Shown: one piece after another, positions 3,001 through 6,000 of the stretch
How the letters are laid out: each line of letters starts with the position of its first letter
Position numbering within the stretch: position 1 is the first letter of the stretch
DNA from: a virus
Taxonomy: Duplodnaviria; Heunggongvirae; Uroviricota; Caudoviricetes
IMG/VR virus record: IMGVR_UViG_2541047807_000011
Strand: one strand, 5' to 3'
DNA length: 34,131 nucleotides
Position numbers: made by a program

Positions 3001-6000
3001 AACAGTAAGGCCACTGGTTTTTATTCTGACAACAAAATCAACGTTTTTTTTCGTTGGTGCCAGTACCATTGTATCCTTCGCCGTTACCGGGCGGACATCA
3101 TTGATATGGGCCATCACCGCGTTAATCAGCTCCTGTGACGGTAAATCATTTGCAGAAGTGATAACCACATCAACCGTACCGGGGCCACGACGTAACGGCT
3201 CCACGTATGCAGAGGTAACACCGTCAACTTCCAGCGCCCAGCGTTTGTAATCATATTTATTACCGCCAGCGGGCGGCCTGCGCAGAATATCCAGATAACG
3301 CGCCAGCAGGTCGGCGTCACTTTCCCTGTCCGTTCCGCCGGTCAGGGATTTAATCGTCACCGTGCTGTTGATGCCTTCCGGCGGGCTGACCAGCGTTGCC
3401 GTCTGCGTCGTGGATGCATTCGTCTGTGCACCCGTGGCGGTGCTTTTTACCGTCACCTCTGCGCTGCCTTCATCACCGATGGTGCAGTCTGCTGTGGTGG
3501 CCACGCTGACACCTTCACCACGAATTTCCGCACCGGCTGGCAGCGTCTTACCGGGTGCGCCGGTAATCACTACCGGACCGGATGAGGCCGTTGCTTTTTT
3601 ACGAAAAACATTGCGCGTACGACAGTGCAGCTCCAGATATTCAGGGTCTGCCGTGTCAGGAAACACCTGACGGAGTATCCACCCCTGATGCATATAAAGC
3701 CCGTCAGCCACGCCGGATACGGCATTGGCACGAATGCGGTAATCGCTGTCAGCGCCGGTATCTATGGTTTCGCCCGGCAGGGCGTTAGCGATATCACGTA
3801 GCTGGCGTTCTGTGTTTTCAGCAACGCCCGGAACAGGAAACGGCATTACATAATCCTCACAGGGTGTTCAAACGTCTGCGGTGTGCCCGCGTTATCCGTG
3901 ACGGTGATTAACAGCAACAACCAGCCGCGCTGCCCCGGTTTTGTGTCAACGGTAATGGATTTTGCCCGCCCGTCATCGAGCAGGGGCTGAAGTGCCTGGC
4001 TGGCATACTGCGCCGCAAGCTTATGAACACGGGAAACGTCTTTTTCCCGCTTCAGCTCGTGCAGGCGTGACCCCAGCGACGCATCCGCCCAGTAACTGCC
4101 AAGCGGCGTCGCCAGTCGCAGATAAACCGCGTTATGAAGGGTATAAATCCGACGGCGTTCGTAGTCGCCGGTTGCAGGTGAAATCGTCTGGTCCATGCCG
4201 CCAGTCTGGCAGCATGGACAGGTCAGAATCAGGTGAGGGTGTTCAGCACTTAATTAACCGGCGTGTCAGACATGCCGTGTGGGGTTGGATGTTTGTGCGT
4301 TCCGATTTTAACGCCATTAATGGTGACGTCAACGGAGGTAATCACTCCACCCACATGGTTGATATTGCCTTCAAAGGTGGCAGTGTATCCCTTGCCCCCA
4401 CTGATGGCCATGCCACCGTTGCCGGTGATTTTGCCTTCCACCGTCAGCCTGTCACTGGCTGTCAGTAACGGTGTTGTGAATGCGGCGCTTTCCTCTGCCT
4501 CAACCTCATAGCGTTTGCATTTCACGCGATAAACATCACATTCATGCTCAATAACCCGCCCGCGCTTCAATACGATTTTCGCGCCTTCGTCGGTATACAG
4601 GGCCACCTCACCGGGTTTCAGTTCCGTCAGGCGATATGCGCCGTGCTCTGTGGCCACCACGACAGTATGGGAGGTATTGCCATTCAGCGGAACGGCAATA
4701 CCCATTGAGCCGGGCGGCGGGGATGTGGTGAGGCCGTAATGCTGAAAATACTCCGCACCATCCAGCTGTTCGCCTGCCAGCCCGTTCAGCTGAAGTAGCT
4801 GTACTTTGGTCGAACTGTCCACCGTACCGGTCACCACCCTGAATGCCTGGCGAACGGCGGCCAGTGCCTGCTGTACGCGCTGATTAACCTTGTCCCACAT
4901 CATTTCTCCCAGACCTTAACAATGGCGACCTCTTTTTTCTTTTTGCCCCTGCGGTGATGGCGTTTCTTCTCGCGCGGGAAGGCGTCAGGTATCCACACGC
5001 CGTCCTCCTTAAAGCGAAGCCGGGTTGTCTGCCCGTTCCGGCCTCCGCTGAACTCACGCCCCATCAGGAAAAAGATGGCATCAATGCCGTGGAGTTCGCT
5101 GACAATCCGCACCCGCTGGCCGGGCTGCCACAGAACACCATCTGCCGTGCGATGGCCTGCAACCAGTGCGACGATATCCAGCCCCGACAGGCGGGCATCA
5201 CTCATCATTTTTTTTGCGCGCCAGCTCACCTGCTCCAGATTGCTGGTGTCGCCCTGGGTGATAATCTGCGGGCGGTAATAATCCACGGTGGGGTCGGTGG
5301 CCACGGCTTTCATGTTATGAATGCCTGTCTGGCCACTGTCCGTATTACCGCTGTCCTGCCCGGACAATGTGCGCACGCTGCCGTCCTCGTTCCAGATATC
5401 CAGCGGCACCACGGCCACCTGTTTCTTGCTGTCTGCGCGGCGGGCGTGGCTCTGGGCCAGCACAGTAAGTTCGGAGAAACAGCCGTTAATGGACCGGGTA
5501 TCGTCCAGCTCCATCACGTTGTTCCCGGTGCCGTTCAGCTTCAGAATCAGCGTATCCACCGGCGTGGTGGTGTAGTCAGGGCCACCCACAACCAGCGTCC
5601 CGTCAGGCTCAAACCACGGCCATAAGCCGCGACCGGCGGCAGCTTTGGCCAGTGCATCCCACGCACGCATCCCAGGCTCAATAACAACTTTGTCATTACG
5701 TGACACACCGGACGCCTGTATACGGATGCGCTGTATCCCCAGTGGTCTGACTATCCTGTCGATGACCTCGTCCAGCGTCAGCTGATTGGCGCTGAACACC
5801 GGCGCGGCACAGTCCACCAGAATGGCAGCATCATCACGCCCGGACAGGGCCAGCGTGCAGCTCTGACGGGACACACTGCGGCGCACGCTGTCTATGCGCC
5901 CACTGAGCACCGTTTCGTCTTCCACCTGCAACCGGATTTGTGCGCCCCGGACGATATCCACCGGGAACACCTTTTCAGGCAGCCCCAGCTGAAGCTGCCA

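Follow-up and report, generated by a model that had tools for sequence, protein, structure and literature searches.

The late promoters of phage Mu are the closest described counterparts of the element considered here. According to the Mu record (L002), the promoter Plys follows gene C, PI is located between genes G and I, and PP (27287-27353) lies within gene N. The 16-bp C site of Mu is centred at -43.5 (PMC2582627). The window, by which we mean the whole stretch of DNA that was analysed (34,131 nucleotides (nt) from a virus of the Caudoviricetes, IMG/VR record IMGVR_UViG_2541047807_000011), is a Mu-like prophage in reverse orientation, all phage genes of which are on the minus strand. In the gap between its gp45-like spike gene and its gp46-like baseplate gene it carries a short motif which, judging from the comparison with related prophages, is probably the upstream half of an activator-dependent late promoter (P46) for gp46 and the genes downstream of it.

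Two further systems resemble what is predicted for the region between this motif and gp46. Davis, Simons and Kleckner reportedly described, in 1985, fold-back inhibition in the transposase mRNA of IS10/Tn10. In IS10, the 5' arm of the inverted repeat precedes the point at which the element's own transcript begins and the 3' arm covers the start codon; only read-through RNA folds and is silenced. The second system consists of leaderless mRNAs, which in the cases known from E. coli code mostly for regulators made in small amounts. Such mRNAs are recognised through their 5'-terminal AUG (PMC4965119).

In the arrangement that we propose for the window, a single activator of the Mor/C family would bind a 16-bp box at 4249-4234 and recruit the host sigma-70 RNA polymerase, and transcription would start about 7 nt past a -10 hexamer, at the A of the gp46 ATG (4196). 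The transcript, covering gp46, gp47, gp48 and the fibre genes, would have no leader or hardly any. A hairpin over the start codon would form only on read-through RNA and keep gp46 untranslated there, in which case the expression of gp46 would depend on P46. Most likely the window has three late promoters of one design, preceding the lysis genes, the protease gene I and gp46, and these appear to differ from the Mor/C-dependent late promoters of Mu in their box, in the displacement of the third promoter, and in the predicted start at the start codon with its fold-back hairpin. We infer from sequence comparison that the activator binds, where transcription starts, that translation is leaderless and that the hairpin acts by fold-back.

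Three copies of the motif in the window

The 14-mer GGGTGTTCAGCACT is found exactly at 4237-4250 on the plus strand, and copies with one mismatch are present at 16162-16175 and 24315-24328, on the plus strand as well. The preliminary description of this DNA, in which a third copy of a late motif was reported between the spike and gp46-like genes, was therefore right about its presence there. The three sites have in common the 13-mer GGGTGTTCAGCAC. No other 13-mer occurs three times in the window, and a triple 13-mer of any kind arose in just 1.5% of first-order Markov simulations of it. Read along the genes, the motif next to gp46 (site 1) is AGTGCTGAACACCC, and it begins with the final base of the gp45 stop codon. 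Since the genes are on the minus strand, the working orientation of the motif is GTGCTGAACACCCTCA; in gene orientation, site 1 reads AAGTGCTGAACACCC, and sites 2 and 3 both read GGGTGCTGAACACCC.

The putative activator box of site 1 (GTGCTGAACACCCTCA, 4234-4249, minus strand) is made up of the motif first noticed and three bases 3' of it, and would extend from about -53 to -38 by the promoter geometry presented below. That of site 2 (GTGCTGAACACCCTCC, 16159-16174, minus strand) lies after a G-like morphogenesis gene and before protease gene I, as an analogue of PI, whereas that of site 3 (GTGCTGAACACCCCCA, 24312-24327, minus strand) is the analogue of Plys. It lies upstream of the holin and endolysin genes, between these and an open reading frame (ORF) of 95 amino acids (aa) which itself follows a Mor-family gene. 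Considering the layout of Mu, sites 3 and 2 correspond in position to Plys and PI, respectively, whereas site 1 does not correspond to PP.

The gap of 53 nt containing site 1 is real. The gp45-like spike gene (4250-4903, minus strand; Pfam Phage_Mu_Gp45 and Phage_spike), which is the last gene of the upstream operon, ends with the stop codon TAA at 4252-4250, and the gp46-like baseplate gene (3846-4196, minus strand; Pfam GP46), the first gene of the predicted operon, begins with the first canonical start past an in-frame stop, the ATG at 4194-4196 (minus strand), whose A at 4196 is also the predicted transcript start. This gap had been called the only non-overlapping one of the tail and baseplate gene train, which is correct insofar as no other sizeable non-coding gap exists in it, but not literally, as there are other gaps of 3-13 nt and a stretch of 162 nt (9727-9888). 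The latter contains a small ORF that is annotated in the related prophage of E. coli E2348/69. Downstream of gp46 are the gp47, gp48 and fibre genes, overlapping or nearly abutting, in the order of the E2348/69 annotation.

At sites 2 and 3, the motif is a 15-nt palindrome, GGGTG-CTGAA-CACCC. This palindrome was considered as the functional unit and dropped, since the box of the relatives is asymmetric (CCACTGAACCCCTTCA) and site 1 lacks the left arm. The site 3 box is in addition placed within a perfect 29-nt palindrome (24308-24336, CTGCTGGGGGTG-CTGAA-CACCCCCAGCAG), which is confined to the window's own clade, the distant relatives being without it. It may be a strong dimer site too, or a hairpin ending the upstream transcript.

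Conservation in related prophages

Relatives were collected by scanning viral contigs with the major head protein, which gave 80 loci with a head-protein identity of 56-100%; the other virion proteins of the distant relatives are only about 45-60% identical to those of the window. On the DNA level, the comparison with complete E. coli genomes and cultured phages covered the 3-kilobase (kb) stretch 3000-6000. Prophages in about 60 complete E. coli genomes match this stretch at 96-97% identity, one of them inserted in the eut operon of E. coli E2348/69, and no cultured phage had a match to it (megablast). Judged by the capsid protein, Klebsiella phage ST405-OXA48phi1.1 (MK388859) comes closest among cultured phages, with 72%.

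About 55 related prophages have the box at these three sites. Nearly all loci extending that far retain 53-95 nt of non-coding sequence between gp45 and gp46, with the box CCCACTGAACCCCTTCA inside it, and this box is also found within their gap between G and I. In the gp45-gp46 gap of 26 distinct relatives, it is kept as CCACTGAAcCCCtTCA. The conserved element is asymmetric and reaches 3' of the 14-mer, and the left arm of the palindrome is not kept. From CTGAA to the start codon the distance is exactly 50 nt for gp46 in nearly every relative and 50-51 nt for gene I, with spacer bases between box and start codon that are wholly different between clades. These data contradict the view that the motif recurs by chance and has no function, to which we give next to no credence. 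Matches with three mismatches are indeed no more common than in shuffles, but the simulations mentioned above speak against chance, as do the intergenic position of all three copies on the gene strand and the retention of the box at orthologous sites of distant relatives while the flanks diverge.

A position weight matrix (PWM) made from the sites of the relatives was scanned over the 1.43 Mb of loci. Matches of at least 17 bits are nearly all on the gene strand, and each phage has them at three places, namely in front of the lysis genes, I and gp46; no gene-strand box was found inside N or P. In the complete genome of Klebsiella phage MK388859 (35 kb) there are exactly three top matches, each of 20.6 bits and before the lysis genes, I and gp46, respectively, while all remaining scores are at most 15.2 bits. 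The proposal, already made in the preliminary description, that the motif belongs to an internal late promoter is supported by this comparison, namely by the three sites, the almost complete confinement of the box to the gene strand and a fixed nAnnnT pattern which is described below. The placement of this candidate promoter is also unlike that in Mu, as had been suggested: PP is within N, and here neither N nor P has a gene-strand box.

The exact 16-mer CCACTGAACCCCTTCA was scanned across 185,579 genomes and gave at least 120 matches, which are mostly due to chance and serve as examples of hosts, not as a census. Of the 120 matches listed, 26 have nAnnnT at the proper offset, where chance would give about 7.5. 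These 26 include copies in prophages of Xenorhabdus, Photorhabdus, Trabulsiella, Erwinia, Morganella and Kosakonia, and those in the context of an I or gp46 gene again have ATG or GTG at the predicted start. They also include two exact 16-bp boxes on one contig (PHAR01000007.1; L120, L162) of a metagenome-assembled genome of the Deltaproteobacteria, each with nAnnnT and ATG at the same offsets and with a flanking inverted repeat. The box module may reach past the Gammaproteobacteria.

The G-I gap of the window contains a second sequence, CGTTTTTAAAAGGGTTTTAAAAACGG (16212-16237, minus strand), which is almost unchanged in relatives with diverged flanks. By analogy, it could be the equivalent of the strong gyrase site of Mu, which is located in the same gap (17879 in L002).

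The -10 hexamer and the predicted transcript start

A conservation profile was calculated from 121 distinct instances, with the three site classes pooled and aligned on the box. Outside the box, conservation across the three classes is highest at two positions past CTGAA, an A after 35 nt and a T after 39 nt. They make up the pattern nAnnnT, which at the level of sequence is the signature of a sigma-70 -10 element. A weaker conserved pair, C and T, is found 10-11 nt past CTGAA in all classes, at a -35-like hexamer. The hexamers of the relatives at the -10 place include TAGTAT, TATCGT, TAATGT, AATACT and GATACT, all of them nAnnnT, and the A (2nd position) and T (6th position) are invariant in 26 of 26 distinct gp46-class sequences in a gap-free alignment. 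In the window, the predicted -10 hexamers are CAGACT at site 1 (4203-4208, minus strand), CATCAT at site 2 (16128-16133, minus strand; the ATG of gene I, at 16120, is 8 nt downstream) and TACCCT at site 3 (24281-24286, minus strand), all three nAnnnT at the same distance from the box. The hexamer seems to be tied to the box and not to the hairpin described in the next section, because its distance to the box is kept in the lysis class, where the hairpin sits further downstream. The hexamer CTGATT, directly downstream of the site 1 box (4227-4232, minus strand), is a putative -35 with a spacer of 18 nt to the -10 hexamer; the -35-like hexamers CTGATT and CAGTAC are both poor.

With the -10 hexamer at 4208-4203 and the usual 7 nt, the start would be at 4196, the A of the gp46 ATG. 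In the lysis promoter of distant relatives, a conserved A is present at the start offset, ahead of a leader of about 28 nt with a Shine-Dalgarno-like GGA. The box of the relatives contains a dyad, TGAA-N4-TTCA, whose centre falls at -43.5 only with a transcript start at the ATG, and the centre of the GGGTG-N5-CACCC palindrome of the window is about 4.5 bp upstream of that of the dyad. The fixed spacing between box and hexamer, the presence of nAnnnT in three classes and the -43.5 dyad centre lead us to favour a Mor/C-type promoter with a start at the start codon.

The same box could also belong to a promoter in which the AT-rich hexamer following it is the -10, with a start about 23 nt past CTGAA (4219-4221), the box at about -30 to -14, and a 5'-terminal hairpin with a function in mRNA stability or in the gating of translation. 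We consider such a shifted start improbable. Several relatives have good -10-like hexamers at this place (GATAAT, CATTAT), and the hairpin, which is under selection at the RNA level, would be 0-3 nt from such a 5' end. However, the place of this hexamer (CTGATT, CTTATT, GATAAT, CATTAT) is poorly conserved and has no invariant A or T, whereas nAnnnT 29 nt past the box is kept in all three classes, including the lysis class with its hairpin elsewhere. A box filling the spacer between -35 and -10 would be without precedent in the Mor/C family, and a shifted start would explain neither the constancy of the 50-nt interval before the start codon nor the lack of a Shine-Dalgarno sequence. The AT-rich hexamer was our own first guess for the -10; it was downgraded by the conservation profile and fits better as a poor -35. 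Readings of CTGAAC and CCCC(A/T)T as sigma-E, sigma-32 or sigma-54 elements were dropped on a misfit of spacing, as judged by eye.

Some other sequences in the window resemble parts of this promoter or a promoter in general. PWM matches at 5792, 7062, 21715, 22724 and 27002 (plus strand) and at 16263 and 2435 (gene strand) were rejected, as the -10 hexamer is missing at the proper offset. A copy of the palindrome with two mismatches (GGGTGCTGAACAACG, 7057-7071, plus strand) is antisense within the N-like gene, has no nAnnnT at the promoter offset, and is probably not a promoter. Within the last part of the gp45-like gene, some 110 nt before gp46 begins, the sequence TTGACG-16 nt-TAAAAT (4305-4332, minus strand) matches the sigma-70 consensus at 10 of 12 positions. 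This match could be due to chance; if it were active, its transcripts would carry the hairpin masking the start codon.

A hairpin over the gp46 start codon

The inverted repeat CCATGCTGCCA-GAC-TGGCGGCATGG (4193-4217, minus strand) is predicted to form an RNA hairpin in which the loop and apex correspond to the -10 hexamer and the 3' arm to the start codon, with a folding energy of -24.9 kcal/mol (z = -6.2). Across 26 sequences, 93% of the cells are paired and compensatory changes are seen in 6 of the 11 pairs (for example from CAT/ATG to CAC/GTG), a result not matched by any of 500 shuffles, and the 3' arm includes the start codon in every relative aligned. The mismatches comprise 18 G.T against 3 A.C, in cells that are not phylogenetically independent; this excess points to a structure in the sense-strand RNA rather than to a DNA palindrome. 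The position of the hairpin relative to the box differs between the site classes.

The 5' arm is upstream of the predicted start, so that only read-through RNA would be able to fold. The computed probability that the gp46 start codon is unpaired is 0.00 in read-through RNA compared with 0.66 in RNA beginning at its own start, a contrast seen in 33 of 33 cases provided that the start is as predicted, and the corresponding values are 0.24 and 0.82 for gene I and 0.00 and 0.41 for the lysis genes. Shine-Dalgarno energies, calculated as the duplex with the anti-Shine-Dalgarno sequence for 33 genes with starts as annotated in E2348/69, are +0.7 kcal/mol for gene I, which has no Shine-Dalgarno match and is the weakest of all 33, and -4.8 kcal/mol for gp46, which has a weak one; most of the other genes range from about -6 to -15 kcal/mol.

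Covariation together with the G.U bias, the complete masking of the start codon in read-through RNA and the lack of a good Shine-Dalgarno sequence would also suit a different explanation, in which there is no internal promoter, and the box and the hairpin form a module for translational control or processing on a long late mRNA (a Com-like site or an RNase III site) that sets the output of gp46. Mu uses a hairpin-opening protein, Com, for mom. We nevertheless regard this explanation as unlikely. The lysis genes have this box in front of them too, but with a different structure downstream, the conserved A and T are at a fixed distance from the box and not from the hairpin, and the positions of the boxes match Plys and PI of Mu. 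No Com-like gene was present among the ORFs scanned, and a search of Rfam gave no match anywhere in the window at the gathering score, nor any in 4100-4350 at E <= 1.

Appreciably less probable again is that the hairpin mainly marks an operon boundary, as a terminator or 3'-end stabiliser of the head and tail transcript after gp45, with a box that is unrelated or the site of another protein. The strength of the stem and its position in the only sizeable gap of the gene train would agree with this. The hairpin is however not an intrinsic terminator, because there is no U-tract (the bases after 4193 are ACCAGACG), and a terminator scan of the gene strand made no call at it. The inclusion of the start codon in the 3' arm of every relative would moreover be needless for a terminator.

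Folding is also predicted at the other sites and in Mu. The leader of about 108 nt between the predicted lysis promoter and the holin ATG (24160-24290, minus strand) folds as a long stem (-46 kcal/mol, z = -3.2). In Mu (L002), the inverted repeats at Plys (10448-10486) and PI (18022-18052) begin right after the -10 hexamer (z = -2.2 and -4.4, respectively), and the one at Plys covers the lys start codon. The fold-back layout may be older than the clade of the window.

The presumed activator

The only Mor/C-family activator gene of the window is at 24670-25137 (minus strand) and codes for a protein of 155 aa (Pfam PF08765 Mor, E = 1.6e-6), whereas ten other early ORFs of the window have no match to the Mor family in Pfam. 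The protein has the FLGGxxFYIP linker and the helix-turn-helix region in common with C and Mor of Mu. It aligns with C over a stretch of 21 residues only and is 27% identical to Mor over 78 residues, and its helix-turn-helix region aligns somewhat better with Mor than with C. By analogy with these activators, it presumably binds the box. Klebsiella phage MK388859 (L083) has an unannotated Mor-family ORF (8304-8774; Pfam E = 5.6e-7) in a 389-nt "gap" after GemA, and its product is 41% identical to the activator of the window.

An ORF of 158 aa (25238-25714, minus strand), located between the gemA-like and Mor-family genes, was considered as a second Mor and rejected, as its N-terminus (MMKKWLFCLVGVIFSCSVLAQ) resembles a signal peptide and it has no match in Pfam. 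It may be a moron; in the Klebsiella phage, a similar ORF that likewise looks secreted is found after the Mor gene instead. The last part of the window's Mor-family gene contains a hairpin with a T-run (24679-24700, minus strand) that looks like a terminator and recalls the one of Mu that overlaps the end of mor and Pm.

Weight of the evidence and implications

Several observations weigh against P46 as proposed here. The -10 hexamers of the window are weak, with 3-4 of 6 matches, and a consensus promoter scan called none of the three sites. The dyad is imperfect in the window (TGAA-CACC-CTCA at site 1, with a right arm that is either CTCA or CCCA), where the boxes are less symmetric than those of the relatives, and the local palindrome at site 1 (4237-4251) has a degenerate left arm, AAGTG. 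The invariant A and T of the hexamer also form a base pair with one another at the apical end of the stem in the gp46 class, and a structural constraint could explain them in that class alone. Folding energies of the sense and antisense strands favour the sense strand only modestly. As to leaderless translation, the start codon is GTG in about one fifth of the gp46-class relatives, and in 5 of the 26 distinct ones aligned, the window having ATG, and GTG starts work poorly on leaderless mRNA in E. coli. A scaffold and protease gene, which is needed in large amounts, would also be an odd candidate for this type of translation. The C box of Mu (CCATAACCCC, found in all four Mu late promoters) is unlike both GTGCTGAACACCCTCA of the window and CCACTGAACCCCTTCA of the relatives. 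This dissimilarity is to be expected from a protein that aligns with C over so short a stretch and shares so little identity with Mor. Finally, a search of the literature gave no transcript-mapping, binding or reporter results for the P46 element or any relative of it, nor a description of the motif, of leaderless late genes in Mu-like phages, or of transcription of the E2348/69 prophage.

A wider claim would be that a widespread clade of Mu-like prophages in Escherichia, Klebsiella, other Enterobacterales and possibly beyond has a fixed late module in which I and gp46 are leaderless and read-through is silenced by a covarying hairpin. We put this forward tentatively, as a possibility that is slightly more doubtful than not. 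If the combined reading is true, two of the three late operons would be leaderless, and each of these would be translationally insulated from the operon upstream. The comparison gives a sequence rule for late promoters (the box, 29 nt, nAnnnT, and a start 7-8 nt later) in a large and mostly unannotated group of Mu-like prophages, and the third late operon boundary is moved relative to Mu. If the predicted start is true, an E. coli phage would make highly expressed virion proteins from leaderless mRNAs, with fold-back hairpins tying each late operon to its own promoter, a combination outside the Mu paradigm.

Genomic setting

The transposase genes A and B are at about 33.9-30.9 kb (minus strand), and the tail fibre genes (minus strand) are at the left end of the window. 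Within 1-1503, tail-fibre and fibre-assembly ORFs are found on both strands, and the fibre-assembly genes of E2348/69 are annotated there in opposite orientations; these opposed ORFs resemble the invertible G segment of Mu. The ORF at 21267-22007 (minus strand) matches the annotated DNA methyltransferase gene of E2348/69 in position and length, and is placed among the late genes, between DUF1804 and the large terminase. Neither a mom-like gene nor a fourth box was found at the right end of the late region of the window.

Comparison with known systems

The predicted promoters resemble the late promoters of Mu in several respects. In both, a gene for an activator of the Mor/C family is located shortly upstream of the lysis promoter, with one 95-aa ORF in between in the window. 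Both have a recognisable -10 and no good -35, and the predicted geometry would place an imperfect dyad box upstream of and overlapping the -35 region, as in Mu. The -10 of Plys, TAGACT, is close to the CAGACT of site 1, and the centre of the C site coincides with that computed for the dyad of the relatives, given the predicted start at the ATG. The differences concern the number and the place of the elements. While PP of Mu lies in N, upstream of P, the third promoter of the window would be between gp45 and gp46, two genes further downstream, and the fourth, mom-type promoter of Mu has no counterpart in the window. Mu has Mor as well as C, compared with just one Mor/C-family protein here. PI and Plys of Mu have leaders with annotated ribosome-binding sites, whereas the start codon is at the predicted transcript start in the window.

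The middle promoter Pm of Mu, which depends on Mor, is similar in the family of its activator and in having a dyad just upstream of a poor -35. It drives the C gene, however, while the boxes of the window precede late structural and lysis genes, from which it appears that the single activator of the window does the job of C. With leaderless mRNAs such as that of lambda cI from PRM, the candidates would share a start codon at the (predicted) 5' end and the lack of a good Shine-Dalgarno sequence, and gene I is A-rich past its start. Unlike the known leaderless regulators, they are virion structural and assembly genes, some with GTG in relatives. The layout of the hairpin is that of IS10, where it shields the transposase from outside promoters; here, the predicted effect would be to shield the late operons from upstream phage transcription.

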